DNA of 32,000 nucleotides, taken from assembly GCA_026625185.1 (NCBI GenBank), contig CP113000.1, positions 465,622 to 497,621 of the forward strand, in the 5' to 3' direction. Of this stretch, positions 1 through 27,197 are shown piece by piece; position 1 is the first letter of the stretch; the number at the start of each line of letters is the position of its first letter. Source of the DNA: Thermodesulfobacteriota bacterium. GTDB taxonomy: Bacteria; Desulfobacterota; WTBG01; JAGOGO01. The notes below the pieces were generated by a model. The model was not told the origin of the DNA. It saw only the letters and a list, made by a program, of their open reading frames with translations, and ran no database searches. Made by a program: the position numbers and the translations under genes.

Positions 1-45
1 CAACTCATCCAAAAGCTGCTCACGTGTTTTATAGGATTTGTTCAT
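1..45 (-). CDS. First 15 codons of a second copy of the PAS/sigma54 activator gene; continues beyond the left edge
   Basis: Identical to 6142..6186, the ATG-proximal end of the 4138..6186 gene (MNKSYKTREQLLDEL). Confidence 0.8.
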   Translation of the reverse strand, partial: MNKSYKTREQLLDEL

Positions 46-55
46 TGATTCGCAC

Positions 56-400
56 TCATGAATTCTTGGGTTTCAGATCGATGCCGACAAGAAACCTTTC
101 CGTGTCCGACATGTCGCCAATGAGCTTTCTCAGCGGCAGGGGGAGTTTCTTGATGAGCGTTGGGGTGGCAATAATCTGCTCTCCCTTGGCCAGCTTGGGC
201 TGTTGGTAGATGTCTATCACATCGAGTTCGTAGCAGCCTTCCAGGTGTTTTTCACAGAGTTTCCGGACATTGGCGATTGTCCGGGTTGACTTTGGGGTCA
301 TCCCAGTAACATACAGCCGAAAAACATACCTTGTCCGGTCTCGCCTCGCGGCCGCTTTTTCGAATTCCTCAGCGCTCGTTTCCCCTTTTTTCATCTTCAT
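56..400 (-). CDS. kaiB: KaiB-family protein, identical duplicate of 6197..6541
   Basis: 114 aa. The thioredoxin-like KaiB core (YVFRLYVTG..TPKS...VIDIYQQPKLAKGEQIIATPTLIKKLPLPLRKLIGDMSDTERFLVGIDL) aligns with cyanobacterial KaiB. Confidence 0.9.
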   Translation of the reverse strand: MKMKKGETSAEEFEKAAARRDRTRYVFRLYVTGMTPKSTRTIANVRKLCEKHLEGCYELDVIDIYQQPKLAKGEQIIATPTLIKKLPLPLRKLIGDMSDTERFLVGIDLKPKNS

Positions 401-425
401 GTCTGTTACTCCAAAATTTATTTTA

Positions 426-476
426 TCATCCGGAGACAGAACGAATGTCGAGTCCTACCAGCACGCGCTCAGTGTT
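426..476 (-). pseudogene. Orphan 3' fragment (last 16 codons plus stop) of the other kaiB paralogue, left at the duplication junction
   Basis: Identical to 6567..6617, the 3' end of the 6567..6917 gene. The homology stops abruptly at 476/477. Confidence 0.8.
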
Positions 477-668
477 AGCTAAGAAATTTTTAAGTTTTCT
501 TTTATTTCTTGACATCAGGAGGCCTTATAAGTGTTAGCTGGTGAACGTCTACGAAAATATCCCATTCATTCTTTGTTCCTTAGTTGACTTGACTAAAAGA
601 TTCTCGGAAGATGAAACAGACTCAAAAATGAACGCCCCTTGTGGTCGGGTGAATTTTGAAATCTGGAT

Positions 669-1952
669 TTAACCTGACAACCAATGCTTGTTGCAGTTGA
701 GCCTTATCCATTCCTTCACAATAGCATAGCCCATGAAGCGCATTATGGCATTCCTGAAACTAAGCTTAAGAAGCAAATAAATTGCCATGTAAATAGAATA
801 AAATTTAGCATAAGCCCTGATGACATTAAGCTGCAGCTCTTGGGCTGATAATAACTTTGGGACAAAAACTATATGCTGAGCGTCATAAAGGCTCCAGTCT
901 TTGGTAAAAATCCGCTTTTGCGTTTCGAGGTCTTCATAGACTTTTGTACCCGGGAAAGGCGTAAGGATTGACATCTGTATAGTGTCTATTTTCTGCTTAA
1001 CAGCAAACTTGAAGGTCTCCCATATGGTATTTTTATTATCGTCCTCTCCACCCAAAACAAACATCCCGTGGATTTTTATCTTCTTTTTGTGAAAAGAACG
1101 GATTGCGGTCACAATCTCTTCAACCGTCTGCCTCTTCTGAAAGGCCGCAAGGGTACTGGGATTAACCGACTCAAAGCCTACGCAGACGACACTGCATCCT
1201 GCCTGAGACATGAGATATATCAGTTCGTTATCTTTGGCAACGTCGGCGCGTACTTGACAAACCCAGTGCCTAATTTTGTGTTTTACCATCAGGCCCAATA
1301 AAGCCTTTGTGCGTTTAGGATGAGCGGCAAAATTATCGTCGCAAATAAAGAATTGTTTTGTATTCCGGGATTTCATTTCATTGATAATACTCTCGGCGCT
1401 GCGGAAACGGTATTCCCGGCCGAACATCTTGGTGACAGAGCAAAAACTGCAGTTGAAAGGGCAGCCTCGAGACGTGGAGATAGGCATAATGAGAGGAGGC
1501 AACCGGTACCCCTTGATCAATGAAAAGTCCGGAAGCGGCAAAGCATCAAGATCCTCGACGGGCCTGCCTTGAACAGCGGATTCTCGTCTTCTGCCCTCAA
1601 CAACGTCGACGATTGTCTCTTCAGCCTCCCCCACCACAACTTGTCTTGCGTACTCCAGTGCCTCATTAGGCAGGAGGCTTGCATGGACTCCACCTATGAT
1701 CACTTTTTCTTTAGGGAATCTTTTGGCTATCTCATAACCGCGTTTTGCTGTTGGAGTCAAGATAGAAATGCCAATGAGATCTGCCTTTAATCTCGCATAA
1801 TCAGGCACATGAATATTTTCGTTATATATCTCAACCTCATACCCCCTATTTCTTAGAATAGTCCCCAGATACACAGGGCCCAATAAGGGCATGTGTAGTT
1901 TGCTGTAGACATTTGCCTCGCAAGCGCGGGGCTCAATAAGCACGATTTTCAT
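669..1952 (-). CDS. B12-binding-domain radical SAM protein
   Basis: 427 aa. N-terminal Rossmann-like cobalamin-binding region (KIVLIEP...DLIGISILT...VIIGGVHAS), then the radical SAM cluster motif SRGCPFNCSFCSV (CxxxCxxC). Confidence 0.85.
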   Translation of the reverse strand: MKIVLIEPRACEANVYSKLHMPLLGPVYLGTILRNRGYEVEIYNENIHVPDYARLKADLIGISILTPTAKRGYEIAKRFPKEKVIIGGVHASLLPNEALEYARQVVVGEAEETIVDVVEGRRRESAVQGRPVEDLDALPLPDFSLIKGYRLPPLIMPISTSRGCPFNCSFCSVTKMFGREYRFRSAESIINEMKSRNTKQFFICDDNFAAHPKRTKALLGLMVKHKIRHWVCQVRADVAKDNELIYLMSQAGCSVVCVGFESVNPSTLAAFQKRQTVEEIVTAIRSFHKKKIKIHGMFVLGGEDDNKNTIWETFKFAVKQKIDTIQMSILTPFPGTKVYEDLETQKRIFTKDWSLYDAQHIVFVPKLLSAQELQLNVIRAYAKFYSIYMAIYLLLKLSFRNAIMRFMGYAIVKEWIRLNCNKHWLSG

Positions 1953-2046
1953 TTTTATAATTCCCGGTTTTATTTTCAGATCTTATTCCATAAGATAAAA
2001 TCCAAAACCATTTGAAGACGTACAATGATGAAACCGGGTTATGGCC

Positions 2047-2202
2047 TTACCGACCGACCAGGATTAAAACACCAGCAGCAATGGCGATTATCCCCATGAT
2101 CAAGGGTAGTCCCTGAAAGCTGAAGCTGGTCAATGCGATTAGCCCAGTCAGGATGAGCCAGATGCTCAGTAAGAGCATTCCCAGGTTCTTGGTCAGTTTC
2201 AT
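2047..2202 (-). CDS. Small two-helix membrane protein (51 aa)
   Basis: MKLTKNLGMLLLSIWLILTGLIALTSFSFQGLPLIMGIIAIAAGVLILVGR is almost wholly hydrophobic. AAGGAGG lies 8 nt upstream of this internal ATG, so the 69-aa track ORF (to 2256) is probably over-extended. Confidence 0.5.
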   Translation of the reverse strand: MKLTKNLGMLLLSIWLILTGLIALTSFSFQGLPLIMGIIAIAAGVLILVGR

Positions 2203-2259
2203 TTTCCTCGCCTCCTTGTGTGAGAAGTGAGATTCGTAAAAACGCAGCCGCCGCACAGG

Positions 2260-2469
2260 CTATTTCTGGGGCTCGCCGACCAGTTCCTCAAAAAGTGTCC
2301 GGTATTGAATCATCGCAAGGCGCAAGTCTTCCGTGTTGGCTTGCCCCCGGGTCTGGCGAAGCGCGATGTCGTGGGCGGTTCGGTAATTCTCCATGACCAG
2401 GGGATGGTCCACGGAGATATCCGCCGCACGCTGTTCAAAGTCACTTACCGGATAGCCGCGCGTGGTCAA
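2260..2469 (-). CDS. Hypothetical small helical protein (69 aa, TTG start)
   Basis: Open frame with a plausible soluble composition, in line with the flanking minus-strand genes. The overlapping plus-strand ORF 2227..2514 is Arg-rich, as antisense frames typically are. No family recognised. Confidence 0.4.
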   Translation of the reverse strand: MTTRGYPVSDFEQRAADISVDHPLVMENYRTAHDIALRQTRGQANTEDLRLAMIQYRTLFEELVGEPQK

Positions 2470-2526
2470 TCACATCGCGCAATAGTTGGTCGGCGTCCGT
2501 TACCGCACCTCTAGGGCTTTCTCCAC

Positions 2527-2724
2527 CTAGTTGATTTTCCTTTGGACCTTCCCGGCTCTCTTTTCATCTCTGCCTTCGGCTTCCAAGCCAGGATTGTTCG
2601 TGAGTTTTTCCGCCTTCTCCTTGACCTTGCCCTTCACTTCGTGAAACTTGCCCTCTACCTCATCCTTAGTCCTTGGCTTTGTGATGTTAACTCCTTTCTG
2701 AATGCCCTCCAATACGCCTAACAC
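2527..2724 (-). CDS. CsbD-family general stress protein
   Basis: 65 aa with the CsbD signature KDEVEGKFHEVKGKVKEKAEKLT...LEAEGRDEKRAGKVQ. Confidence 0.8.
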   Translation of the reverse strand: MLGVLEGIQKGVNITKPRTKDEVEGKFHEVKGKVKEKAEKLTNNPGLEAEGRDEKRAGKVQRKIN

Positions 2725-2731
2725 ATAACTG

Positions 2732-3232
2732 TCATTGTTGTTTCTTCATCACATTTTTTGTCGGTTCTTTTTTACTTGTCTCCATGGACATCATATTCTT
2801 CATTTTCTTAAACTGGTCGTCCGTCAAGATAGTCCGCACTTCTTGCATGGATTTTAACATCTCTAAATGATGAGCTGTTTTTATGTCTGCAATTTTTTTG
2901 ACAGCAGCGTTTGCCTTCCCTAGGTCGAAATCTTTCACGTCCATGATTTCCATAAGTTCGATCTGCGAAATCTTCTGGTCAGCTATGAATCGCGCCTGTT
3001 TTTTTTGCATTTCCCGGTGGATAGGCGTAATTTTATTGATCTGTTCATCGGTAAGCCCTATCTTATCCGCATTTGCGAGGCACATATCCATCATATTTCC
3101 CATCATGTCCATATTGCACATTCCCATCATCTGCCCATGATGTCCTTCATGTGTGGGCTTATCCATAATCTGCGAAAACGCAGGCAAAGCAAAAATAACT
3201 ATCAACAACAATGAAAGAACTATCTTTTTCAT
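2732..3232 (-). CDS. Periplasmic Spy/CpxP-like (LTxxQ-type) protein with a Met/His-rich N-terminal segment
   Basis: Signal peptide MKKIVLSLLLIVIFALPAFS. Two LTDxQ motifs (GLTDEQINKI, ILTDDQFKKM) in a helical body. Segment HEGHHGQMMGMCNMDMMGNMMDMC follows the signal peptide. Confidence 0.6.
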   Translation of the reverse strand: MKKIVLSLLLIVIFALPAFSQIMDKPTHEGHHGQMMGMCNMDMMGNMMDMCLANADKIGLTDEQINKITPIHREMQKKQARFIADQKISQIELMEIMDVKDFDLGKANAAVKKIADIKTAHHLEMLKSMQEVRTILTDDQFKKMKNMMSMETSKKEPTKNVMKKQQ

Positions 3233-3325
3233 AATTTACATCTCCTTGTTTGGGTTTATTTTGATAATTAGTAATGCGAAAAAGCGAAAATAGGGGCTCC
3301 GATAGCGGTCGATGACCCCCTGCGC

Positions 3326-3640
3326 CTATTTCACGATGAGATTATTCTTTACGGATTTGACCCCTCCGACGTTCCGTGCGATTTGACCCGCTTTATCGAC
3401 GGCCGTTTGAGAACCAACGAAGCCGCTCAGCTGGACGACGCCCTTGTAAGTTTCGACACTGATCTGGAAGGACTTGAGAAAATCATCAGCGGCAAGCTGA
3501 GTTTTTACCTTGGACGTGATGACCGAATCGTCAATGTATTGACCGGAACTTTCATGTTTGGATGTCGATGCACAGGCCATAAAGGTGGCGATCAACATAA
3601 GAAGTAAAAAATAGGAGATAAAGATATTTCTCTTTTTCAT
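3326..3640 (-). CDS. BON-domain (OsmY-like) lipoprotein
   Basis: Internal ATG at 3640 is preceded by GAGGAG. Lipobox-like LIATFMAC. BON pattern DDSVITSKVKTQLAAD...VETYKGVVQLSGFV.S....KAGQIARNVGGVKSVKNNL. The track ORF (to 3769) is over-extended. Confidence 0.8.
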   Translation of the reverse strand: MKKRNIFISYFLLLMLIATFMACASTSKHESSGQYIDDSVITSKVKTQLAADDFLKSFQISVETYKGVVQLSGFVGSQTAVDKAGQIARNVGGVKSVKNNLIVK

Positions 3641-3720
3641 TAGCAGGTACTCCTCTCTGTAAATTTGTTGGTGAACTGTTTGATTACGAGACCTTTTCTC
3701 CTGAAGGTATCGTAAGATTC

Positions 3721-3736
3721 GGCAAAATCTTTTCCA
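3721..3736 (-). promoter_or_regulatory. Candidate second sigma54 (-24/-12) promoter upstream of the BON gene
   Basis: Minus strand reads TGGAAAAGATTTTGCC. GG and GC have the canonical spacing and the -12 element is TTGC. It lies ~80 nt upstream of the 3640 start. Confidence 0.4.
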
Positions 3737-3793
3737 ACTTGCTGACCACCTCTTTTCCCAATACCTCACCTTCTTCGGGAAGAGTCCAAATCG

Positions 3794-3943
3794 TTACAAT
3801 ATCTTTCGTCCCTGAATAAGTTGAACCACCACCACGATAATGGCAATGACCAGCAGGATGTTAGTGATTTCACCCATCGGGTGGCCACTAACCAGCCTCA
3901 GCAGACACAAAATTAAGAAAATAACAAATATGGCCCAAAGCAT
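3794..3943 (-). CDS. lmo0937-family small membrane protein (49 aa; below the ORF-track cutoff)
   Basis: Hand translation gives MLWAIFVIFLILCLLRLVSGHPMGEITNILLVIAIIVVVVQLIQGRKIL*. This matches the MLW...LLVIA.I......GR pattern of this ~46-50 aa family. Confidence 0.7.
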   Translation of the reverse strand: MLWAIFVIFLILCLLRLVSGHPMGEITNILLVIAIIVVVVQLIQGRKIL

Positions 3944-4013
3944 ATTAAACTTTTTTTGATTTATCTATCACATCAAAAGGGAACATGCTTTGGTGTTTGC
4001 TAATGGATTGAAC

Positions 4014-4029
4014 TGCAGGATGTGTGCCA
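4014..4029 (-). promoter_or_regulatory. sigma54 (-24/-12) promoter
   Basis: Minus strand reads TGGCACACATCCTGCA, against the consensus TGGCACG-N4-TTGCW with exact GG/GC spacing. It lies ~70 nt upstream of the lmo0937-type gene and ~108 nt downstream of the activator stop codon. Confidence 0.75.
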
Positions 4030-4129
4030 GGATTGTTGTTGACAGGACAGGAGTTTCTATGATGTTGAAAATATTGAAATTTAAGCGAAGACTACAATGG
4101 AGGAATGATAGCGTGAAGGGTGCCGTTTA

Positions 4130-4160
4130 CTGATATATCAGGACTCTCCTGATATATCAG
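4130..4160. promoter_or_regulatory. Two copies of the perfect 12-bp palindrome CTGATATATCAG (4130..4141 and 4149..4160); candidate enhancer (UAS) for the sigma54 activator
   Basis: Both palindromes were read directly, 19 bp centre to centre, ~105-130 bp upstream of the -24 element. They overlap the last codons and stop of the activator gene. Confidence 0.55.
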
Positions 4161-6186
4161 GCATTTTCTTATTTCTTTGGATGCCCAGTCTCTGCATCCT
4201 CGATTCAAGCGTCTTTGGATTGATGCCTAAAATCTCTGCTGCACCGTCCTTGCCGCTTACCCGCCCTTTGGTGGTGTTCAAGGCCTCGATAATGCGGCGT
4301 TTTTCTACCTCTTCCAGAGTCCCGGACTGGTTTGCAGCTGACCGCGTAATCTTTGGTACATCAAAATGCAGGACAGGCCCAATGGTGACGATCATCGCAC
4401 GCTCGGTAACATTCCTCAGTTCCCTTACGTTGCCCGGCCAGGGATAGGCTTGCAGGGCTTCAATGTCCATCTTCCGTATTGATTCGATCCGCTTGCCCAT
4501 CCTCTTGCCGAACTCCTGAACAAAAGACCATACGAGCGGCAATATGTCCTCACGACGCTCACGAAGAGGCGGTATGGTAATCTGAAAAATGTTCAAACGA
4601 TAGTATAGGTCCTCCCGAAACCCGCCTTCGCTGACCAACCTGGCAAGATCGCGGTTCGAGGCCGTAATAATTCTGACATTGACCTTCACGGTCCGGGGGC
4701 TGCCCAGGCGCTCGAACTCACCGCTCTCCAGTACCCGAAGCAGCTTGGCCTGGAGTTCCGGCGGCAAGGAGTCAATCTCATCCAGTAAAATAGTTGAAGC
4801 ATCAGCAAGCTCAAAACGGCCAATTTGCTTCGACAGCGCGCCGGTAAAAGCACCCTTCTCGTGGCCGAACAGTTCACTTTCGATGAGGGTCGGTGGCAGG
4901 GCGGCACAGTTGACCTTAATTATGATCCGGTCCTTGCGGTCGCTCAGGTTATGGATCGCATGAGCGATCAGTTCCTTTCCGGTGCCTGTCTCCCCCAGGA
5001 TTAAAACGGTCGAGTCGGTCAGCCCCACTTGTTCTACCTGCTTCAAAACGGTACTGATCGCCTCACTGTTGCCCACGATATCCTTATGTGAGTATATCAG
5101 ATTAATTTCTTTCTTAAGATAGATATTCTCCTCATGCAATTGGTCTTTTAATTGTTCGATTATCCTGAGCGCTTCCCTAAGTGAGTTTGCCGCCTGTTTG
5201 CGGTCCTCTATTTCAAGCAAAAGCTGCTGGTTTACACTGAACAACTCTTCAGTCCGTTCCTTCACCCGCAGGTCCATCTCATCATACGCATTCTGGAGCG
5301 CCTGCTCTGCTCGTTTTCGCAAAGTGATGTCAATTATTACGACAATAATGCCGAGGACACCTTTATGAGTGATAAGTAAGTTTGCGCTCAATAGAAAGGC
5401 AAGAAACTCGTTTTTCCCATGCTTGAAAGTGACCTCAACCCTTTGAAGGATCTTGTCGGTCATTGCAGATAGAAGGACAAAGGGAGTCCCGTCAGGATAG
5501 ATGAGGTGAAATGCCTGGTCAAATGGCTGAAAGATTGGGCTTCTGCCGAAGAGTCTATCGGTCGACTGACTTGCGCGGATGATGAGGCCTTGGGGGTCGC
5601 AGAGAACAAATATTTCCGAAGCTTGATGAAGGATTTGAGTGGTCAGTTTTTCCTCTGCCAGGATCTCTTCATTGCGTTTTTGCTCTGTCAGGTCGGTAAC
5701 CACCATGCACACCGCGCCGGGCATATCCGTGTGCTCAAGGGCGCTTATGGAAAGTAAAACCGATGCAGGATTGTCACCTCCGGTCTGTAAGGTCAGTTCC
5801 CCCTTACTGTTCCCCTTTAAACCCCGCTCAAACAATGCCTTAAATAATTGAAGGTCTGTTGATGAAATGTATCGGTAGATTGACGATCCTATTACTTTTT
5901 CCAGAGACCCCTTGACGATATCTGCAAAACGTTGGTTACAAAAAAGGATCGTGCCGTCGGAAGCCAGGGTGACGGCCCCTTCGTTCATGGTTTCGACCAT
6001 GACCCGGTAAGGAAGATCGGCGCCCGATAGTGTAAAGACCCGATCTCCTTCCGCCGTTGAAACAACCAGACCATCCACCTCGCCGCTTACGATAGCGCGC
6101 AGAGTTTCCTCAGCTTCCCTCACCCGCGATCTGAGTTCCTCCAACTCATCCAAAAGCTGCTCACGTGTTTTATAGGATTTGTTCAT
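4138..6186 (-). CDS. sigma54-dependent transcriptional activator (bEBP): N-terminal coiled coil, two PAS domains, AAA+ domain, Fis-type HTH. No receiver domain.
   Basis: 682 aa. Walker A GETGTGKE, GAFTGA loop (ESELFGHEKGAFTGA), VRIITASNRDL, C-terminal HTH AAEILGINPKTLESRMQRLGI. PAS-like segments after the LRAIVSGEVDGLVV opening. Confidence 0.93.
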   Translation of the reverse strand: MNKSYKTREQLLDELEELRSRVREAEETLRAIVSGEVDGLVVSTAEGDRVFTLSGADLPYRVMVETMNEGAVTLASDGTILFCNQRFADIVKGSLEKVIGSSIYRYISSTDLQLFKALFERGLKGNSKGELTLQTGGDNPASVLLSISALEHTDMPGAVCMVVTDLTEQKRNEEILAEEKLTTQILHQASEIFVLCDPQGLIIRASQSTDRLFGRSPIFQPFDQAFHLIYPDGTPFVLLSAMTDKILQRVEVTFKHGKNEFLAFLLSANLLITHKGVLGIIVVIIDITLRKRAEQALQNAYDEMDLRVKERTEELFSVNQQLLLEIEDRKQAANSLREALRIIEQLKDQLHEENIYLKKEINLIYSHKDIVGNSEAISTVLKQVEQVGLTDSTVLILGETGTGKELIAHAIHNLSDRKDRIIIKVNCAALPPTLIESELFGHEKGAFTGALSKQIGRFELADASTILLDEIDSLPPELQAKLLRVLESGEFERLGSPRTVKVNVRIITASNRDLARLVSEGGFREDLYYRLNIFQITIPPLRERREDILPLVWSFVQEFGKRMGKRIESIRKMDIEALQAYPWPGNVRELRNVTERAMIVTIGPVLHFDVPKITRSAANQSGTLEEVEKRRIIEALNTTKGRVSGKDGAAEILGINPKTLESRMQRLGIQRNKKMPDISGES

Positions 6187-6617
6187 TGATTCGCACTCAT
6201 GAATTCTTGGGTTTCAGATCGATGCCGACAAGAAACCTTTCCGTGTCCGACATGTCGCCAATGAGCTTTCTCAGCGGCAGGGGGAGTTTCTTGATGAGCG
6301 TTGGGGTGGCAATAATCTGCTCTCCCTTGGCCAGCTTGGGCTGTTGGTAGATGTCTATCACATCGAGTTCGTAGCAGCCTTCCAGGTGTTTTTCACAGAG
6401 TTTCCGGACATTGGCGATTGTCCGGGTTGACTTTGGGGTCATCCCAGTAACATACAGCCGAAAAACATACCTTGTCCGGTCTCGCCTCGCGGCCGCTTTT
6501 TCGAATTCCTCAGCGCTCGTTTCCCCTTTTTTCATCTTCATGTCTGTTACTCCAAAATTTATTTTATCATCCGGAGACAGAACGAATGTCGAGTCCTACC
6601 AGCACGCGCTCAGTGTT
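6142..6617. repeat. Right copy of the perfect direct repeat (partner 1..476)
   Basis: See 1..476. It spans the activator start, the complete proximal kaiB and the last 51 nt of the distal kaiB. Confidence 0.95.
6197..6541 (-). CDS. kaiB: KaiB-family protein (paralogue 2, adjacent to the activator)
   Basis: Same 114-aa protein as 56..400. GGAG lies 8 nt upstream of the ATG. Only 10 nt separate its stop from the activator ATG. Confidence 0.9.
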   Translation of the reverse strand: MKMKKGETSAEEFEKAAARRDRTRYVFRLYVTGMTPKSTRTIANVRKLCEKHLEGCYELDVIDIYQQPKLAKGEQIIATPTLIKKLPLPLRKLIGDMSDTERFLVGIDLKPKNS

Positions 6618-6917
6618 TACCAGATCTCCGATAATCTTTTTAAGCGGTTCAGGAAGCTTCCTTACCAATGTCGGTATGGCAATAATCTGGTCCCCTTTGG
6701 CAAGCTGGGGATTCTTTAAAAGGTCGATCACTTCAATGCGGTATTTTCCGGCGAGGTGCTCTTCGCAGATTTTCTTTAAATTAGCAAAAGCCGTAATTGA
6801 TTTTGTGGTCTGGCCGGCTACATATAACTTCAGATTCCAGATTTCTTCTGCCGAACCGGTCTTTGCTTTCTTTCCCTTTCCTGTTGAGACAGGTGTCACC
6901 TTACTCTCCTTACTCAT
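6567..6917 (-). CDS. kaiB: KaiB-family protein (paralogue 1)
   Basis: 116 aa. Core [12 protein letters not shown]...[49 protein letters not shown]. About 55% identical to paralogue 2 by hand count. Its ATG overlaps the kaiC stop (ATGA). Confidence 0.9.
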
Positions 6918-8668
6918 CTTATTCTCCTTTCCCTCTTCTTTTTCAAGTGCTTTGTTCGCGGTGCTGAAGGTTTCCCTTTGCGAAGATGCGCCATTTTTAA
7001 ACGGTCTTCTGCCAGGGCAGCTTGTCTTTTTTGCTCTTCTTCCGCTATCAAATGCAGCTCTTCAGATTCCGCATCGAACTCGGCACGGAGCGCTGCGATC
7101 TTTTCTTCCACTGCCTTTCGCTTGCGCTCCTGCGCGCGAAGCCTGTGCTCCACCTCATGCCGGGCTGCCAGCTCGGAGGCCTTTTCCTTGGCTTCCTGGG
7201 CTACCCGGGCACTGCCGGTTAATACCTCACCGGAACCGGTATAGATATCGATAAGGCCAATGCCCTGGTTCGTGAGCAGAAACTCTTGAATCTGGTTGGA
7301 GTGGGCCATGCCACGGGACTTCAAAATGTAGAGGCCCCGGTTGCGTTCCCCATTGAGTTCAATATCCCGGAGAAGAAGCCATGTATCGATCAGCGAAGAT
7401 ATCTCTTCGCTGGTGTGTTCAAGGCTGCCTCCAAAATGGGTTAGTTCCGTCAAAAAAGTGGTGATCTTTTTCATTTTCAAATGGTCGATCAGGCGCGTTA
7501 AGATGGATTTGACCTCTGATATCTTTCCCGCTACGCTCAGGTTGCTGATCGGGTCTACAACGAAAACCTGGGGACCGAACACATCGATCACCTTGTGGAA
7601 AGTGACCAGATGCATCTCCAGGCCGTAAAGCGAAGGCCGGGCTGAATGAAACTTGAGCAGCCCCTTCTTAACCCAGCGGCTGAGATCCAGGCCGATGGAT
7701 TCCATGTTGCGGATGATCTGACTGGGCGATTCCTCAAAGGCAAAATAGAGGCAGCGCTCGCCGCGCCTGCAGGCGGCGTCGGCAAAGGTAGCAGACATAC
7801 TTGTTTTGCCGTTGCCCGCCGTGCCGGAGACGAGAATGGTGCTGCCCCGGTAGAACCCTTTCCCATCCAGCATGGCATCCAACTTGGGAATGCCCGTGGA
7901 GACGCGCTCCAAGGAAACGGGGTAGTCGAGCCCCAGGGAAGTGATGGGCAGGATCGAGAGACCGCTCTCGTCAATCAGGAAGGGATACTCGTCGGCGCCG
8001 TGCGATGAACCGCGGTACTTGACAATCCGCAGGCGGCGGGTGGAAATCTGCTCTTCGATGCGGAAATCGAGGAAGATCACGCAATCCGCCACGTATTCTT
8101 CGAGCCCGTAGCGGGTCAGGAGCTTGTCGCCGCTTTCTCCGGTAACGATGGCCGTCACCCCGCGGTCTTTCAACCAGTGAAAAAGCCGGCGCAGCTCTGC
8201 CCGAATGATGGCGGCATTGGACAGCCCGGAGAAAAGCGCTTCGATGGTATCCAAGACGACCCGTTTCGCCTTGATGGAATCAATGGCACTCCCCAGGCGG
8301 ATGAACAATCCTTCCAAGTCGTACTCACCCGTTTCCTCAACTTCGCTTCGCTCGAGGTAGACGTGGTCCGTGGCGATGAGACCGCGCGAAATCATGCCAT
8401 GGAGATCGAAACCAAGGGAAATGAAGTTCTTCGCGAGATCATCCGGCGTCTCCTCGAAAGTCATAAAGACCCCGGGTTCCCCGTAATTCATAGCGCCCCG
8501 CATGAGAAACTCCATGGCGAAAAGAGTTTTGCCGCAACCCGCGCTGCCGCAGATCAGGGTCGGCCTGCCTTTCGGAAGCCCTCCCTTCGTGATCTCATCG
8601 AGACCCTTGATGCCCGTCTGGCTTTTTTCAAGAACAGCACCATCATGTTTTGCCTTTACCATAGTCAC
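6914..8668 (-). CDS. kaiC: KaiC (double RecA-like domain ATPase/autokinase) with a ~98-aa C-terminal coiled-coil plus basic extension
   Basis: 584 aa. CI Walker A GSAGCGKT with TFEETP; CII Walker A GTAGNGKT with AFEESP. Phosphosite region [13 protein letters not shown] aligns with the S. elongatus HISTITDTIILL. RBS GGGAGG precedes the ATG. Confidence 0.93.
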
Positions 8669-8804
8669 CTCCCAACACCTTTACCCCGTTAGAAATTTTT
8701 CATTATTAACCAGGAGTTCCCTTCGGTACCCTACTTCTAACAGGGTTTATTAATCTGAAGTAATGCCTATAAGAGTAAAATACTATAGCTGCCGGTTAAC
8801 GGCA

Positions 8805-8832
8805 AATATAGCATAACTAACTGATATTGCAA
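8805..8832 (-). promoter_or_regulatory. Candidate sigma70-type promoter for the kai operon
   Basis: Minus strand reads TTGCAA-N16-TATATT, ~137 nt upstream of the kaiC ATG. A small stem-loop (TGCCG gttaa CGGCA) follows immediately downstream. Confidence 0.3.
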
Positions 8833-9032
8833 GGGTTAAATATATTTTTTATGCCTTAAGTCAATGGCATTCATTGCCTATTAATATATCAAAAATTCAT
8901 TACCTTGCCAAAGAAAAAATTCTGGAATATCAAACTTTTGGTTGCCTACGTCAAAGATAAATTTTTCTTTAGTCTCTTCAGGCGTCACCTGAAAGGTTTC
9001 ATAGAAGGAACGATTCGCTGAGAGGACATTCT

Positions 9033-9220
9033 GTGTATATCTCCAGGCCCAACTGAACAAATTTTTCTATTTGGGTTTGCGAACCCCTGGTGGTCCGGAC
9101 CTTTGGTTTTCATGTTAAGATTGTATTGCTTCCTGCGTTCCAAGGTCAAACTTTTTTCTTTTCTGCTTTTTAAGATAGACTTTTTTCTCTTCTGATGCAC
9201 CTCATTGGGAGAATATTATC
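9033..9220 (-). repeat. ~190-bp non-coding repeat element, copy A (inverted relative to copy B at 25246..25436)
   Basis: The reverse complement aligns with 25246..25436. I counted 111/147 identical positions over the central block, plus one 3-nt indel. Confidence 0.75.
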
Positions 9221-9337
9221 CGAGATCCATTTCTTAGCGAGGTGAGGAGCGGCTTTTCCATCCAATTAAAAAGGCCTCGAATCCACCTAAAAACAAAACC
9301 CATTTACCCTCTCAGGGTGTAGATGGGTTACAATAGT

Positions 9338-9361
9338 TGTAGGTACTTTTGTAGGCACTTT
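9338..9361 (+). repeat. 12-bp tandem direct repeat x2 (TGTAGGTACTTT / TGTAGGCACTTT)
   Basis: Read directly; one mismatch. It lies ~70 bp from the tRNA-Val fragment. Confidence 0.7.
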
Positions 9362-9430
9362 GACGGAAAAAGACGGCTTTTAAAGGATATTGGTGGTTGA
9401 AAATAAAGGAGAAATCCGTTTTCCCACGAC

Positions 9431-9472
9431 CTTACAAGCCGGAGGTCGTAGGTTCGAAACCTGCTCCGCCTA
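9431..9472 (+). pseudogene. Displaced 3' half of a tRNA-Val(UAC): anticodon loop to discriminator, with no 5' half
   Basis: CTTACAA GCCGG AGGTC GTAGG TTCGAAA CCTGC TCCGCCT A matches the anticodon loop, 3' anticodon stem, variable loop, T-arm and 3' acceptor strand. No AGGCGGA acceptor partner or D-arm occurs upstream. Confidence 0.65.
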
Positions 9473-9897
9473 CTCAATAAAATCAAGGCGTTAGATAAAT
9501 AATCGTAGGTCTTTTCTTTTTCTTAACAAAGGTCTTCCCCACACTATTCCCCACAGATTTGATGAACCGCTTCAAGCTTGAAAAAAGTTGCTGCAGCTAA
9601 ACTCCGGAACTTACCGGTTACAGAAAGGCCACGGAGCACGGGAATGATTTCTTGGAGGCAGTTGAAGGGCACGAGAATACACGATAAACGTCCCCGAGGA
9701 AAGGCTTTCGTGACTTTTCCCACCGTAAGAGTTAAATGCACCTTATCACCGAATAACCCCAAGACGCACTAAACTCGTTCGGCCTTTTCCCAGCCGGAGT
9801 ATTCAACTACTTGCCCAGCTAGAGACGTTGTTAATTCAATTAACTTATGAAACAACACATTCCGGCCGATGCTATTTTCGATAAGTAGGCGTGAGGC

Positions 9898-12800
9898 CTA
9901 ATGCCGGTAGACGGCAAGTTCTACGGCATGTTCAACATGATCGTCCTTCAGGTTAATCCAGGGGTCTTCTTGCATTACCCCGTCAACCGAAACGTTAGTG
10001 GCACACGCCCCTGCCGGCCCCGGCAGAACCTTTACGTTTATGTGGTAAATGGTTTCCCGGTATCGGTAGTGCACCGTAAAGCTCTCCCACTCAGCAGGAA
10101 GACACGGCTCGACATGCAACTTGTCCTTTTCAAGTTTAAGCCCCAGGACTGATTCCACGATAAGCCGGTACATCCATCCGGCCGATCCCGTATACCAGGT
10201 CCATCCACCCCGACCGGTGTGGGGGGAGACTGCATAGACATCGGCAGCAACGACATAGGGCTCTACTTTATACGTACCAATCCCCTCGGCCGATTTGCCA
10301 TGATTCACCGGGTTAATCAGGGCAAGGATTTCCCAGGCGCGTTGGCTGTCACCGAGCGCGGCAAAGGCCATGGCAACCCAGATGGCGCTATGAGTGTACT
10401 GCCCGCCATTTTCCCGGACCCCGGGGACATACCCTTTGATATAGCCGGGATTCAAATCCGATTTGTCAAACGGCGGGTCCAGAAGCTGAACCAGCGCGTC
10501 ATCCCGGCGAACGAGGCGCTTATCTACGGATTCCATTGCCCGTCGCGAGCGCGTGGGGCTACCGGCTCCAGATAGGACCGACCAGCTTTGGGCAATGGAA
10601 TCAATCCGGCATTCGGGATTGCGTGATGAACCGAGCGGCGTGCCGTCGTCGAAGAAAGCACGGAGGTACCACTCACCATCCCAGCCATTCTGTTCGATAG
10701 TCTGGCTCAGATTACCTGCTTCTCTCTCACAACGTTCGGCAAAGGGAAGATCACCGTGCAGGCGTGCTACTTCAATGAAACTCAGCAGTACTTTATAAAG
10801 GAAAAACGCGACCCAGACACTTTCACCTTTGCCGTCTTTGCCAACCATGTTCATACCGTCGTTCCAGTCACCGGATCCCATAAGGGGAAGGCCATGCTCG
10901 CCAAATCTGAGGCCACACAGGATAGCTCTTACACAGTGATCGTAGAGACTAGCCTCTTCGTCGGACCTGCCGGGCAGATCGTAATAGGAGTCCTCATCAA
11001 TATTGACCGGGCGTCCCTTAATGAAACTGACAGTTTCCTCCAATACCCCGGTATCCCCCGTGGTCATAACATAGCGACAGGCCGCCAGGGGCAGCCAGAG
11101 AAAATCATCCGAACAGTGCGTGCGCACTCCCCGGCCTGAGGGCGGATGCCACCAATGCTGAACATCTCCTTCCGGGAACTGACGGGATGCCGAAAGGAGG
11201 AGATGCTCGCGCACGAGCCGTGGCTCGGCGTGAATGAGCGCCATCACGTCTTGAAGCTGGTCACGAAAGCCGAAGGCCCCTCCGGACTGGTAGTAGCCGC
11301 TCCGTCCCCAAAAACGGCAGGCCAGGGTCTGATATAAGAGCCACCCGTTGGCCAGGACGTTGATGGACGGGTCCGGGGTCTCAACCTGCACCGCGCCGAG
11401 GGTGCGGTTCCAATACTGCCATACCGCTTCAAGCGCCCCCCGCGCGGCAGCGGACCCACGAAAGCGGTGTGCCAGGGTGCCGGCATCGTCAGCGTCTTGT
11501 CCGGCGCCGAGAGTGAAGACAATTTCACGTTCTTCCCCGTCCGCCAGTTCAAAGGCCACTCGAAGAGCTCCACAGGGATCCAGGGCGGCCCCTACCCTGC
11601 CGGAAAGCCGAGACTCCGCCATCGCAGCGGGATTCGCGACCGTTCCGTTACGCCCCAGGAATTCCGTCCGGTCGCCGCTAACGGTCCGGGTTCCATCGTC
11701 CACATTAAAAAATGCCGTTCGGGTGCCGAATTCAATGTTGTAAGGATTACGGGCAAAGAGGGCGCCGCTGAAATGGTTGATCTCGGTCATGATGTGCATG
11801 ACTGATTTTGATTTCAGATCGCCCAGCACCCATTCCGCGTATGCGGTGACCGAAAGTCGCCGCGACCGGCCCGACTGGTTACGCACCTTGAGCACCGTAA
11901 ACTTGACCGGTGCGTCCACGGCAACATAAACCCAGACCTCGGTGCTGATGCCACGCTCGGTATGCTCGAAGACACTGTAGCCGAATCCGTGCCGGGTGAG
12001 GTACGGCGTGGTGCCGCGGCAGGGCAAAGGCATGGGGGACCAGAAATGCCCTCGCTCGTCATCACGAAGGTAAAAGGCTTCTCCGCTCGAATCGCTGACT
12101 GGATCATTGTACCAGGGGGTGAGGCGGAACTCGTGGGCATTCTCGCCCCACGTATAGGCCGGCCCGTTCTCTGAAACCACGGTTCCGAAAACCGGGTTCG
12201 CCAGCACATTCACCCACGGGGCCGGTGTCACCTGCCCGCGGGCAGTTGAAATGACGTACTCCCGGCCATCAGGAGTGAACCCTCCCAAGCCGTTGAAAAA
12301 CATCAGGTCCTGCCGTGGCCGGGCCGCAACTGCCAAAGCGTCGCCTCGTTCGGTTCGAGTTGGCACAAGACCCGGTATAGTTTTTTCTGCAACGCTTCGC
12401 CGGTTGAACTGGTCCGTGAGCGTTCCCCTCTGGTCAGTGATAATGACACGAGCAACTGCCTGAAAGAGAATCCGGTCTTCTTTTGATATCTGGTCGGAAG
12501 GTCGTACGAAAATGCCACCCGGTCGATCGGTCACATTGGCTTCCGTGCCCGCAGCGATGAGCCCCATGATCTGTTCATGAAGGAGTTGCCGGTAGCCGGC
12601 GTGATCTTCGTTCCAGATCACCAGGTCAACTGCCAGTCCTTTGAGACGCCAATAGGCATGGGCCTGAACGAGTTGGCGCACCAGATTGATGTTCGACGGA
12701 TCTTCAATCTGCAACAGCACCAAGGGGAGATCACCGGAAATAGAATAACCCCAGAGGCCGGATTGCCCGCGACGGTTCTTCATCAGGGCTTCCGGATCGG

Positions 12801-15800
12801 AACGCAGGGAAGAATTGGCGTATAGAACCGAGGCGGCAAGACGTCCAAAAAGTTGCGCATCGGCTTCGGTGGCATTGATCTGCCGGAGGAGCACCTGGCT
12901 ATGAGTCCATGCCAGATCAAAAACACGATCGGCGAGATGCCGGTCCTGGTATTTCCCTATCAGACTTAAGACAGCATCATGGGTTTCACCGATACCGGTG
13001 ACGATATTGATAGTAACCGATTTTTCTGGATCAAGGGTTATGCGCTGCCTAATCGCCACAATCGGATCAAGCACCGAGCCTTCGCTACCCGAAAGACCGG
13101 ATGAACCGCTCATTGCGTCCGGATCAGCAAGGGTGTTTCCACGGCCGATAAACCGCATTCGGTCAGTCTCAAACGAAACTTCTCCACTATCCGCCCCGTG
13201 CACCGCCATGAGATGAAACATCCAGGGTGGCTGTTCATCGAGGGAGCGGGGACGTCGGGTGCAGAGAATTGCGCTCTGCGGGCGGATGATCTCGGTCTGG
13301 ACAAAAAGATTGCTGAAGGCCGGATGAAGCGCGTCCTGTGCGAACGAGGTAAGAACGACTTCCGCGTAACTCGTTACCTCGATTGTTTTGTGATTCCGCG
13401 TTCGGTTCGTGATGGTAATCCGGCGCAACTCAATGTCATCCTCAGGCGAAACGGCAATCTCGGTATGGGTGTCAAGACCCTGATCCCGGCGACGAAACTC
13501 TGCTCGCCCTTCCGAGAATATTGCTTCGTACTGGCTGGTGGCCTTGAGGGTTGGTTGGTGCGTCGTTGACCAGAAAAGACCGCTTTTAAGATCACGGATA
13601 TAACAGAAGGCGCCCCACTTATCGCAGGTGCTGTCTTCGTGCCACCGGGTCACAGCCATTTCTTTCCAGTGGCTGTACCCACCGCCCGCGTTCGTGATCA
13701 TGACGTGATATCTGCCGTTCGATAGCAACTGCACTTCCGGCATGGGAGTGTCGGGGCTCGTGTAAACACGTATGGGCATCTCTTTCACTTCAGTCAAAGC
13801 GGTATTTACTTCTGAAAGTTCGGTCGTGTGCGAATAAAAGGCCGTGGCCTTTGGCACCCGCTCCTGAAGCAGGAGCATAATTGCCTGAAACGAAGGGTCC
13901 GACTCGAATCGCCTTTGCATGGGACGATTAAGAAGTAAAGAGGCCAGAGAAAGAAGGCTCATGCCCTGGTGATGAGCCATGAAGGACCGAACCACCGCGC
14001 TCGATTGCCCGCGGGGCAGGCGGGTCGAAGTGTAGTCAATGGCTTCATAAAAACCATACTTTCCCTCAAAGCCCTGGGCGGCGATCACCTCAAGATTTTC
14101 ACAGGCTTCTTCCGGGTCTACCATGAGCGCCAGCGCTGAAGCGTACGGGGCAATGACCAGATCCGCGGAAAGTCCGCGTTTGAGGCCCAAGCCGGGCACG
14201 CCAAAGGCGCTATATTGGTAATTGAGATGGACGTCGATCAGGTTATACCCGGATTCCGAAACACCCCAGGGTACCCCCCGGTTTTTGCCATACTCGATCT
14301 GTCGTGCCACCGCCGCTTTATAAGTCTCGTCGAGCAGGGTGTTTTCATAGGTCGGCATGACAAGGAGCGGCATGAGATATTCGAACATGGAACCGCTCCA
14401 GGAAAGAAGAATCGGCTCCCCGGCGGCGGTAGTAAGCAGCCGACCCAAGGCAAACCAGCTCTCCTGCGGCAATTGTCCCTGGGCAATGGCGACAAACGTG
14501 GCGAGTCGCGCTTCCGAAGCCAGTAAATCATAGTAACTCGCGTCCCGCCGGTTTTCGCTGACGTTGTAGCCGATCGCCAACAGATGGCGAGCCTCGTCGT
14601 AGAGGAAGTCGTACTCCATCCGGGCAAGTTCATCGGATTGACGCGCCAGATCTTCGAGGACCTCTATTCTCGCCTTTGCCCGGTTGCAGGCCGCACTGAT
14701 AAATCCTTTAAGTTCATCAATCCGCTTACCGCCGTTTCGATTTATGAGTGCAGGCAGTAACTCCTTTTCAAGCTGGGCCAAGGTATGAAGCGTCGGAATC
14801 TGGTTGAGGGCGGGGAAGTCCTTCAGTTCCGCAGGCGTGAGGGAGAGCATCGTCCAGGGGCAAAGAAATTCCAGGTCCTCGAGGGCGGCCCGGCATTGCG
14901 CGGCAAAGGACCTCGACCACCAAGCAACCTGAGAATCAGAGTTGGAGCCCGAGTCATGAACTATTTCCTCAGTTAACGTCGCTAGCTTACCAAGGCTTTC
15001 CTTTACCGCAGCGAGCATATCAGGCGGTGAAACACACAGAGAAAACTCTTCCCGCGCTTGCGTGAGCCAGGGAAAAGCGTTTTCCCCGGCAGTGTCTCCG
15101 AGAATCCTCAGGGTGTCGCACAAGCCCTCAAAAACCTTGGGTCCCAAAATCTTCTCATCAGGGAGTTTGAGCAGCCCTGCCCGCAATGTTAACAGGTGGG
15201 CCGCAAGATTCCCGCTATCAACTGCCGAAATATAGATTGGCAAGAGTGGTTTCAAAGATTGGGTGTCGTACCAGTTATAGAAGTGTCCTTTATAGCGTTC
15301 CATGGCTTCCATGGAACGGAAGGCACGAGCGGTGCGATCAATGAGCTGCGCTTCGGAAATATACCCGAAGTCCCAGGCGGATAAATTGGCAAGGAGTGCA
15401 ATCCCCATGTTGGTCGGCGACGTGCGATGAGCAACTGTGGCCATGGGATGTCCCTGATAGTTATCGGGTGGAAGCCAATTATCCTCCGGACCGACGAAGG
15501 TCTCAAAGAAAGCCCAGGTCTTCCGCGAAATCTTTCTCAAAAAAATGAGCTGGTCGGAGGTAAGCTTTTTTCCCCGGCGCGTGAGGGGTTTGCTGATCCA
15601 CCAGGCTACCACGGGTGAGACAAACCAGAGGAACAGAACCGGCAGGGCGATTGCCAAATCCCCCGGCCGTAAAACCGCAAGATAGATCGCCGCGGAAAGA
15701 GCAATGACCGGGGAGATCCACATGGTTCGCCAGGAACCGGCCTGACCTTTCCGACGAGTGCGGTCGGAATCGCCCGAGGGGTTCCATTCGAGAAGCCGCT

Positions 15801-19489: not shown

Positions 19490-19507
19490 TTACGTTAAGT
19501 AACGTAA
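19490..19507. repeat. 8-bp perfect inverted repeat TTACGTTA-ag-TAACGTAA, 17 bp outside the tRNA-Arg fragment
   Basis: Read directly. Confidence 0.7.
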
Positions 19508-19523
19508 CTAGTTGTTATTATTA

Positions 19524-19569
19524 GCGCGCCCAGGGTGACTCGAACACCCAACCTACGGATTCGTAGTCC
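19524..19569 (-). pseudogene. Displaced 3' half of a tRNA-Arg(ACG); putative att site of the integrative element to its right
   Basis: Minus strand reads (aagga) CTACGAA TCCGT AGGTT GGGTG TTCGAGT CACCC TGGGCGC G, i.e. anticodon loop (ACG), stem, variable loop, T-arm and 3' acceptor strand. No GCGCCCA 5' acceptor or D-arm is present on the 5' side. Confidence 0.7.
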
Positions 19570-19688
19570 TTTTAATCCACCTTCATATAATTTCACTTAC
19601 CTTCAAAAATCACTTGAAAATTCTGATAGTTTGGTGTATTATTCATTCATATTAATTCATATAAACCCACTTGTTTTCACCGAAAAAG

Positions 19689-19707
19689 TGGGGACAGAAT
19701 GGGGACA
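19689..19707 (+). repeat. Direct repeat TGGGGACA x2 (11-bp period) between att and int; candidate integrase arm-type sites
   Basis: aGTGGGGACAGAATGGGGACAAAT read directly. It lies 45-60 bp upstream of the int start. Confidence 0.4.
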
Positions 19708-19751
19708 AATTCCAGCATACGCTAATGTTTTTCATAATGAGGTAGTTAAAG

Positions 19752-21732: not shown

Positions 21733-21813
21733 TAATCCTTTTACAACTATTTCAAACTGGGACAGACTCCTAAGTGTTTATACATCAATATAAATTCACT
21801 TATGGAGGTTCCC

Positions 21814-22050
21814 ATGCATCAACATCAAAGTACCCCAAACCTTACAGCAATGGCTGCGAAATGGCCTTCTGAGTTCGTTTCCCGTGAAAGGGTAAGCGAA
21901 TTTTCCGGAGGCATTCTCCACCCGAGAACTTTGGCAAATTTAGATTCCAAGGGGGAGGGCCCCAAGCGGATCCGCATCGGCAGGAAGGTTGCTTATAACG
22001 TGCATGATCTTTGTGATTGGCTCGCGAAAAGAACACAAAATATTAAATGA
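21814..22050 (+). CDS. AlpA/excisionase-like small HTH DNA-binding protein
   Basis: GGAGG lies 5 nt upstream of the ATG at 21814 (the track ORF begins at 21802). Pattern VSEFSGG..HPRTLANLDSKGEGPKRIRIGRKVAYNVHDLCDWL is typical of AlpA/Xis-type winged HTH proteins. Its position between int and the primase also fits. Confidence 0.6.
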   Translation: MHQHQSTPNLTAMAAKWPSEFVSRERVSEFSGGILHPRTLANLDSKGEGPKRIRIGRKVAYNVHDLCDWLAKRTQNIK

Positions 22051-22061
22051 GGGGTTGAGAA

Positions 22062-27189: not shown

Positions 27190-27197
27190 GTTTTTGC

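Follow-up and report, generated by a model that had tools for sequence, protein, structure and literature searches.

What KaiBC systems do outside the cyanobacteria, and how their state is passed on, is a long-standing question, and the purple-bacterial literature considered here notes only a PAS/kinase gene after kaiB. The question is raised again by a locus in a 32-kb stretch of Thermodesulfobacteriota DNA (the window), in which kaiC, kaiB1, kaiB2 and the gene for a receiver-less bacterial enhancer-binding protein (bEBP), that is, a sigma-54 activator, follow one another on the minus strand, like all genes of the kai locus, with two perfect palindromes, a -24/-12 promoter and small stress genes after them (Table 1). 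On balance, we favor reading the locus as a Rhodobacter-type KaiC/KaiB timer or energy sensor that lacks KaiA and whose output would be the sigma-54 activator, here besides a histidine kinase. The original prediction for this DNA had described the stretch from the kai genes through the bEBP to the stress-gene cassette, and all of its features were found in place on the minus strand, including the tight packing: an ATGA overlap of kaiC and kaiB1, a 25-nt gap between kaiB1 and kaiB2, and a 10-nt gap between kaiB2 and the activator gene.

Table 1. Features of the kai locus and its left flank, with positions in the 32-kb window
Feature	Position	Strand	Basis or remark
kaiC	6914..8668	-	NCBIfam NF006799, 736 bits, cut-off 408
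kaiB1	6567..6917	-	Pfam KaiB, E 3.2e-27, 94.5 bits, cut-off 27 bits; overlaps kaiC stop (ATGA)
kaiB2	6197..6541	-	Pfam KaiB, E 1.2e-25, 89.4 bits, cut-off 27 bits
Sigma-54 activator (bEBP), 682 aa	4138..6186	-	Pfam PAS, Sigma54_activat, AAA_lid_14, HTH_8
N-terminal input module of activator, aa 1-172	5671..6186	-	Helix, hairpin GEVDGLVV...VFTLSGA, PAS1
PAS2 (aa ~191-286) and long helix (aa 288-364) leading into AAA+	5092..5670	-	AlphaFold2; Pfam PAS_9
Two 12-bp perfect palindromes CTGATATATCAG, proposed enhancer (upstream activating sequence, UAS)	4149..4160 and 4130..4141	.	Sequence
Sigma-54 promoter TGGCACacatcCTGCA	4029..4014	-	109 nt after activator stop codon
lmo0937/DUF5670 small membrane protein, first gene past promoter	3794..3943	-	NCBIfam NF033488, 38.4 bits, cut-off 30; Pfam DUF5670
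BON-domain lipoprotein, OsmY-like	3326..3640 (JGI, 104 aa); open reading frame 3326..3769	-	Pfam BON, E 3.4e-21
LTXXQ (Spy/CpxP-like) periplasmic protein	2732..3232	-	Pfam, 24.5 bits, cut-off 24.3, borderline
CsbD-like general stress protein	2527..2724	-	Pfam CsbD, 51.5 bits, cut-off 40
Small open reading frame, 69 aa	2260..2469	-	No Pfam match; gene call by JGI
Small open reading frame, 51 aa, hydrophobic	2047..2202	-	No Pfam match; gene call by JGI
B12-binding radical SAM protein	669..1952	-	Pfam Radical_SAM and B12-binding; 94 nt after cassette
Exact copy of 6142..6617	1..476	-	100% over 476 nt; last 51 nt of kaiB1, full kaiB2 (56..400), kinase start
First 15 codons of PAS-GAF-HisKA_3 kinase	45..1	-	Continues past left window end

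KaiC is 584 aa long as the listed open reading frame (ORF) and 582 aa in the JGI call. Pfam PF06745 matched it twice (E 4.4e-110), giving two tandem RecA-like KaiC domains, and its closest PDB match was the KaiC of Rhodobacter sphaeroides (RsKaiC, 8DBA, E 1.6e-191) over residues 13-555, including the coiled-coil tail. Visible in this alignment are the Walker A motifs (GSAGCGKT), the catalytic EE pairs (AFEE) and the S-S phosphosite, where EEISSLID is aligned with GLSSLMD of RsKaiC; past about residue 500, the protein has a C-terminal extension, and the alignment runs through the tail to residue 555. Judged by these features, it is a KaiA-independent KaiC of the Rhodobacter type with a C-terminal coiled-coil extension. 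In R. sphaeroides KaiC, the coiled-coil tail reportedly takes the place of KaiA, and KaiC proteins of this type are said to autophosphorylate without KaiA and to form an hourglass sensitive to the ATP/ADP ratio. The predicted absence of kaiA held: the JGI gene table, which covers window positions 1..16186, lists no KaiA family, nor was one found among the called genes in 22 kb around the locus or in the related loci looked up. Because KaiA is absent, the locus should not be filed as a KaiABC clock.

Both KaiB proteins found their best PDB match in R. sphaeroides KaiB (8FWJ_M), and both score below the cyanobacterial equivalog cut-offs of NCBIfam. The SasA-type model NF006800 matched KaiB2 with E 5.9e-7 and KaiB1 with E 2.3e-4. 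Each paralog retains the G and D of the VG(L/I)D motif, which we take to be the positions mutated in fold-locked KaiB, a correspondence that is only suggestive here.

For the activator, Pfam identified a PAS domain (aa 60-170), Sigma54_activat (PF00158, aa 370-536, E 6.5e-68) and HTH_8 (aa 623-666, E 3.6e-9), and the translation contains the GAFTGA loop as GHEKGAFTGA; the motifs indicate that its AAA+/GAFTGA/helix-turn-helix (HTH) output is complete. The top NCBIfam match was FhlA, with 398 bits against a cut-off of 830, and NifA and others were below their cut-offs as well. Since all equivalog scores are sub-cut-off, the activator falls outside every named subfamily (FhlA, NifA, NorR, PspF, NtrC, etc.). 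As predicted, there is no receiver domain, neither as a Pfam Response_reg match nor in an AlphaFold2 model of aa 1-365, and the protein is therefore not a two-component response regulator. The prediction of two PAS domains was borne out in Pfam for PAS1, whereas PAS2 was sub-threshold there (PAS_9, E 6.5e-4) and was recognized by its PAS fold in the AlphaFold2 model. The model consists of a helix (8-33), hairpin strands (39-52), PAS1 (69-165), PAS2 (191-286) and a helix (288-364). Its confidence, as predicted local distance difference test (pLDDT), is about 80-90 for PAS2, above 90 for the helix 288-364 and below 50 for the hairpin. PAS2 is missing from some activator orthologs. Orthologs over the full length, with identities of 58-88%, occur in large numbers among Syntrophales, Smithella, Desulfobacterales and related metagenome-assembled genomes (MAGs), and an identical protein is also recorded in an NCBI Thermodesulfobacteriota MAG (WAC08049.1).

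Conservation of the arrangement was assessed by scanning one genome per GTDB species with the N-terminal module of the activator. The scan gave 250 relatives; the 80 best loci were used, and kai presence was counted by tblastn with the proteins of the window. Gene order, domain content, sites and conservation are given as observed. A kaiB lies within 400 nt upstream of the module gene in all 79 loci that have at least 400 nt of upstream DNA; two kaiB genes are present in 68 of the 72 with at least 900 nt, and kaiC in 70 of the 72 with at least 1,300 nt. The effector that follows has a sigma-54 AAA+ output in most loci and a kinase output in a few, and some loci have both. Three ortholog contexts that were looked up all read kaiC-kaiB-kaiB-activator, and at the locus of a 62%-identical ortholog, the ATGA overlap and the 25-nt and 10-nt gaps are repeated exactly; 10 nt is also the commonest distance between kaiB2 and effector across the loci. 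Two of the three continue with DUF3096, YtxH, DUF3309, LTXXQ, ABM, DUF5670, BON, CsbD and OmpA genes. On this comparative evidence, kaiC-kaiB1-kaiB2-activator is one tight unit conserved across Desulfobacterota. The original prediction had named loss of the kai-bEBP synteny in relatives as a ground against itself; the synteny is conserved almost without exception.

The two KaiB proteins can be told apart across these loci. Mean identity is 83% within KaiB1, 72% within KaiB2 and 47% between them, and in a neighbor-joining tree, 71 of 72 upstream KaiB copies fall into one pure clade. Such clean ortholog groups argue that the duplication of kaiB is old and that both copies have been kept. The idea that each effector needs its own kaiB2 was dropped, the extra kaiB being truncated in two genomes (L002 and L032) and absent in Smithella-type loci. 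One contig assigned to a Planctomycetia MAG (L055, 9651..13274) carries kaiB2 and an activator with no kaiC or kaiB1 upstream; the AAA+ region of this activator is interrupted by about 1.3 kb of inserted DNA, and the locus is probably a decayed copy, possibly transferred or mis-binned.

The promoter past the activator gene is the single exact match to TGGCAC-N5-YTGCW in the 32 kb (TGGCACacatcCTGCA, at 4014..4029). It lies 109 nt past the stop codon by count, where about 108 nt had been predicted, and the transcription start is predicted near 4003. The two palindromes are perfect and at enhancer distance, as predicted, with centers about 107 and 126 nt upstream of the GG of the -24 element; they are spaced 19 bp center to center, and the 4130..4141 copy overlaps the activator stop codon. 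At up to one mismatch, CTGATATATCAG has two matches in the window, against 0.07 expected by chance. We propose that the palindromes act as the UAS of the activator.

To score the promoter in relatives, the 600 nt past the activator stop were compared with TGGCACG-N4-TTGCW, GG and GC being required and matches of at least 10 of 12 positions being counted. Such a promoter was present in 35 of 54 related loci, mostly at +155 to +161, compared with only 2 of 52 for the 450 nt upstream of kaiC under equal scoring; a stricter regular expression found it in 25 of 59 loci. When relatives were aligned on the promoter, two tandem sites appeared about 95-130 nt upstream of -24 (CCCTCAATATATTGAGG, ttcca, CCAAATATTGAGG). 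The clade of the window combines the palindrome CTGATATATCAG with the HTH helix INPKTLESRMQRLGI, and the main clade combines CCTCAATATATTGAGG with LHPSTLRARMHKLGI. This co-variation of palindrome and HTH helix is the strongest evidence at hand that the palindromes belong to the activator.

Relatives also keep an AT-rich element, approximately TCTAAYC-N4-TGTTATTAAAGGAT, between the tandem sites and -24, in the position expected of an IHF-type bending site; the clade of the window differs at this place. Further copies of the main-clade enhancer motifs occur 2-7 kb from the activator, in or beside cassettes, in seven loci (L003, L005, L013, L026, L029, L033 and L037), and one of those in L005 adjoins a divergently oriented DUF5670 gene. 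These extra motifs suggest that there are several activator-dependent promoters per locus. Sigma-54 autoregulation of the kai operon was ruled out, a strong site upstream of kaiC being found in 2 of 52 loci and none in this genome. Sigma-70-like hexamers upstream of kaiC were no commoner than in shuffled sequence.

The genes facing the promoter are the run of small stress and envelope genes that had been predicted, with matches to the lmo0937, BON, LTXXQ and CsbD families and two small ORFs after them. A lipobox-like FMAC is visible in the BON protein, and the NCBIfam Spy model gave the LTXXQ protein a sub-cut-off 33 bits. The two family-less ORFs gave no tblastn homologs in related loci and hence do not count as conserved parts of the cassette. 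Among 80 downstream ORFs, hand-filtered in 30 related loci, the families that came up repeatedly were ABM (11), CsbD (5), LTXXQ (5) and DUF4398 (4), followed by DUF3309, BON, YtxH and DUF3096 (three each); OmpA, Usp and DUF5670 were also seen. A tblastn homolog of at least one of the four named cassette genes of the window was present in 21 of 45 loci. Family membership thus described, the stress/envelope theme of the cassette is conserved, and its gene list is not. In many relatives (e.g., L007, L011, L035 and L067), the first ORF, about 28-30 nt past the promoter, encodes an ABM protein starting MILVIIRMKVLSEKRMELSQ; L003 is among the loci with only a degraded trace of this ORF, and the window's first cassette lacks ABM. 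The radical SAM gene that follows may share the transcription unit of the cassette. A B12-binding radical SAM gene also lies a few kb downstream of the activator in six other loci (L035, L040, L065, L072, L077 and L079), a recurrence that suggests a looser association with the locus.

The statement in the original prediction that there is no histidine kinase holds inside the window and fails at genome level, since a PAS-GAF-HisKA_3 kinase gene begins at the left edge. On the source contig (L001, an 836,687-bp JGI metagenome contig), the copied stretch belongs to a perfect direct repeat of 911 nt, 6,141 bp apart (9570..10480 and 15711..16621), which runs from the last 51 nt of kaiB1 through the whole of kaiB2 to codon 160 of the next gene. 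After the left kaiB2 copy, this gene encodes a histidine kinase of 595 aa (PAS-GAF-HisKA_3-HATPase); over its first 160 residues it is identical to the activator, and the likeness ends abruptly beyond them. Because the kinase shares the activator's module and an identical kaiB2, the genome has a phosphorelay-type output as well as a sigma-54 output. In a related genome from the same metagenome (L002), the activator is 88% identical to that of the window, and the 5' ends of the activator gene and of a gene for a 757-aa kinase are 100% alike over at least 720 nt. Comparison of the modules shows 100% identity within each genome and a 4.8% difference between the two; the tract ends differ, and the conversion tracts center on the 3' part of kaiB2 and the module. 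Identity within genomes against divergence between them looks like the signature of gene conversion, seemingly ongoing, with an assembly artefact as a less likely possibility.

A second copy of the promoter region is found on the same contig about 3.4-3.8 kb left of the window (L001 19522..19952). The last 70 codons of the activator survive there as a remnant (81% identity), which is followed by both palindromes, still perfect, by the promoter variant cGGCACacattCTGCT and by the same leader. The region as a whole is about 90% identical to that of the window over about 410 nt, with the palindromes unchanged, and the genes past it are entericidin-like, ABM (L001 20319..20663) and OmpA. Since this second enhancer/promoter copy has been kept, the activator probably has at least two local targets. 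Just before the activator remnant is an IS200-type (Y1_Tnp) transposase gene (L001 18555..18986).

The N-terminal module extends well beyond the sigma-54 activators. A HMMER search with it against 1.84 billion representative proteins, clustered at 50% identity, gave 1,058 clusters at E<=1e-30, nearly always matching residues 1-172, in host proteins of 115-1,840 aa. In a Pfam scan of 75 module representatives, 57 were histidine kinases (HisKA 35, HisKA_3 15, HisKA_2 8, HWE 4), and the other outputs included HD-GYP-like domains (3), GGDEF-EAL (1) and a sigma-54 activator (1). The module is thus constant while the outputs differ between sigma-54 AAA+, HisKA, HisKA_3, HisKA_2/HWE, HD-GYP and GGDEF-EAL. 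Five distant members were looked up for genomic context, one of which (P0133) is uninformative, its contig ending 165 nt upstream of the gene. In the four informative cases, at 32-53% module identity, KaiB1-type and KaiB2-type genes lie directly upstream, and in one of them, the complete kaiC-kaiB-kaiB is present. In an alignment of the N-terminal 172 residues of 19 orthologs, the best-conserved stretch is residues 24-84, with the hairpin GEVD(G/A)LVV...VFTL.GA before the PAS core. Low pLDDT in the hairpin would be in keeping with folding upon contact with a partner. No KaiB-like (thioredoxin-like) domain was found in the module by Pfam scan or in the AlphaFold2 model.

These observations lead us to put forward, tentatively, a wider proposal in which the helix-hairpin-PAS module would be a general KaiB-docking input domain, through which a KaiA-less KaiC-KaiB1-KaiB2 timer or energy sensor could drive interchangeable outputs. 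It is equally tentative, as part of the same proposal, that in anaerobic, non-phototrophic Desulfobacterota the activator would turn the KaiC state directly into sigma-54 transcription of genes for small envelope proteins of a general-stress-like kind, with no phosphorelay. KaiB2 could, on that footing, serve as a specialized adaptor paralog, functionally resembling the KaiB-like domain of SasA but as a separate protein.

The protein contacts and the direction of control that we infer for the locus would be as follows. The phosphorylation or ATPase state of KaiC would set KaiB binding. The helix-hairpin-PAS module would be contacted, possibly at its conserved hairpin, by a KaiB, for which KaiB2 is the likeliest candidate, being the paralog that always adjoins the effector. 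This contact would either keep the activator inactive or release it. Freed activator would assemble on the palindromes and remodel sigma-54 RNA polymerase at the 4014-4029 promoter, and it probably also works at the second enhancer/promoter copy, 3.6 kb left of the window. The outcome would be expression of the BON, CsbD, Spy-like, DUF5670 and related proteins. Given hosts that are anaerobic and non-phototrophic, the likelier role of the system is to report energy state or elapsed time, in the manner of an hourglass, and not to run as a free circadian clock. The PAS domains of KidA bind fold-switched KaiB, which is a precedent for a KaiB-PAS contact (PMC9478674). A KaiBC state read by a bEBP and gating a sigma-54 regulon, as originally predicted, is supported by the synteny, by the conservation of promoter and palindromes, and by the co-variation of palindrome and HTH helix.

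Other explanations of the same locus have to be weighed against this one. Since a PAS domain generally has a small ligand or cofactor, the module could itself be a sensor, and the Foldseek neighbors of the sensor model are generic tandem-PAS sensors, with NifL at the top and DosP, FixL and MmoS among them. The PAS module might then be an ordinary ligand or redox sensor beside which the kai genes are merely co-expressed, or the module proteins might be inputs that reset KaiC, as the cyanobacterial PAS/GAF proteins CikA and KidA also modulate the oscillator (PMC9478674). We consider this unlikely. The adjacency of kaiB1 and kaiB2 persists down to 32% module identity and with at least five output types, which would be hard to explain without a direct functional link; the best-conserved part of the module is the hairpin before the PAS core, which is poorly ordered in the monomer model, and not a ligand pocket; and an AAA+ and HTH activator with an adjoining promoter is an output device by construction. 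It is also conceivable, if rather improbable, that KaiC itself, and not KaiB, contacts or phosphorylates the activator, both KaiB proteins serving only to tune KaiC. KaiC is a kinase and an ATPase, and SasA, which reads KaiC directly via a KaiB-like domain, offers a precedent; the slightly better match of KaiB2 than of KaiB1 to NF006800 would allow KaiB2 to be a competitor and not an adaptor. However, the effector always adjoins kaiB2, at a gap of about 10 nt, KaiB2 being the less conserved and effector-proximal paralog, the module has no KaiB-like domain of its own, and binding of PAS to KaiB has a precedent (PMC9478674).

For the DNA sites, the competing view is that the palindromes are a mere RNA hairpin or terminator of the kai-activator transcript and that the -24/-12 match is fortuitous. 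The consensus scan does give 4130..4160 as a 14-bp stem-loop on the plus strand, but the stem has no T-run after it on the coding (minus) strand, which makes a terminator unlikely. Activator enhancers typically have sites about 19-21 bp apart and about 100-130 nt from -24, and both the spacing of the palindromes and their distance from -24 are typical in this respect. With the promoter at a fixed offset in so many more activator loci than controls, and with the palindrome sequence changing together with the HTH helix, we regard this view as very improbable. Several observations nevertheless weigh against the activator-output reading that we favor. No strong promoter was found within 600 nt in 19 of the 54 activator loci, and about half of the loci have no tblastn match to the cassette genes of the window. 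The extra kaiB before a second effector is a truncated hybrid in two genomes (L002 and L032), so co-duplication of kaiB2 may only reflect adjacency. In Smithella-type loci, two module proteins stand behind a single kaiB2: two Smithellaceae loci (L040 and L071) have the order kaiC-kaiB1-kaiB2, module-PAS-HisKA kinase, module activator and CheB-CheR-PAS fusion, and their 542-aa activator, which lacks PAS2, is followed by no strong sigma-54 promoter within 600 nt. Finally, the exact repeats come from metagenome assemblies; the same proteins are also present on a 3.3-Mb NCBI contig (WAC08049.1).

Upstream of kaiC is a gene-free stretch of 1.2 kb (8669..9897), in which about 9430..9480 on the plus strand resembles the 3' half of a tRNA (GGTTCGAAACCTGCTCCGCC-like) and may be a leftover attachment site; ARAGORN and Rfam found no tRNA or known RNA in this upstream region. 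Beyond it, as the neighbor of the kai locus, a single 2,912-aa ORF (9898..18636, minus strand, 54-61% GC) contains GH94, glycoamylase and GH94 beta-supersandwich domains in the JGI table and, by this domain content, is cyclic beta-1,2-glucan synthase/phosphorylase-like. A lower-GC island (39-48% GC) occupies about 19500..30600 on the plus strand. Judged by sequence motifs only, its genes encode a tyrosine integrase (19752..20990), a primase/helicase-like protein (22062..23972), a Vsr-like endonuclease (25527..25913), two cytosine-5 DNA methyltransferases (25900..27189 and 27198..28226) and a McrB-like AAA protein (28236..30587), and the island is probably an integrated element with a restriction-modification system.

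The locus provides a complete and testable output path, from a KaiC sensor through two KaiB proteins, a reader module and an ATPase activator to its sites, promoter and target genes. Syntrophic and sulfate-reducing lineages carry it in dozens of species, found in sediments, peat, groundwater and digesters. Since the hosts live in the dark, the locus also matters to the question of what Kai timers measure, energy state or the time elapsed since a stress. Its few components could be rebuilt in vitro or in a reporter strain, and the shared module is a handle for finding Kai outputs elsewhere. The original prediction had not recognized the architecture as described, and no published description turned up in open-access full-text searching. 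The same searching found no relevant link between Kai and sigma-54, RpoN, NtrC or enhancer-binding proteins in open-access full text, most hits being judged by title or abstract and few subscription journals being covered. A direct transcriptional output for Kai timers is apparently undescribed.

The closest known arrangement is the kaiC-kaiB-PAS/histidine kinase (HK) operon noted in purple bacteria (PMC4794148). As in the purple non-sulfur bacteria Rhodopseudomonas palustris and R. sphaeroides, there is no KaiA, kaiC overlaps kaiB, and the PAS effector comes last; the likeness to the R. sphaeroides system extends to KaiC, which is closest to RsKaiC and shares its tail and S-S motif, and this genome has a kinase version of the module protein as well. 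The system in the window differs in having two conserved KaiB paralogs where the published arrangement has one (PMC4794148), and its effector, unlike the purple-bacterial PAS/HK, is a sigma-54 AAA+ and HTH protein with an adjoining enhancer/promoter that would need no His-Asp step. Like the Legionella and Pseudomonas KaiBC or KaiC-like systems, it occurs in non-photosynthetic hosts and would link Kai to stress resistance (for Pseudomonas, bioRxiv 10.1101/2022.01.26.477890). Unlike those systems, the DNA of the window shows a candidate output path. Phenotypes have been reported for the Legionella and Pseudomonas Kai systems, but neither a transcription factor nor a promoter has been defined for them to our knowledge.

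Among sigma-54 activators controlled by a partner protein or by PAS/GAF domains, the AAA+ sigma-54 domain, GAFTGA, Fis-type HTH and N-terminal regulation without a receiver are shared with NifL-NifA, PspA-PspF, NorR, FhlA, DhaR and TyrR, none of which has a Kai link. The N-terminal PAS region of KidA binds KaiB, a likeness to the proposed role of the module of the window, whereas KidA has a diguanylate-cyclase-type output and tunes the clock period (PMC9478674). The cyanobacterial SasA-RpaA and CikA pathways resemble the path proposed here in that the Kai state is read by a signaling protein via a docking domain and turned into transcription. Theirs, however, is a phosphorelay to a response regulator, with the KaiB-like domain of SasA fused to the kinase, whereas the system in the window has a free KaiB2, a helix-hairpin-PAS reader on a sigma-54 activator, and no KaiA.

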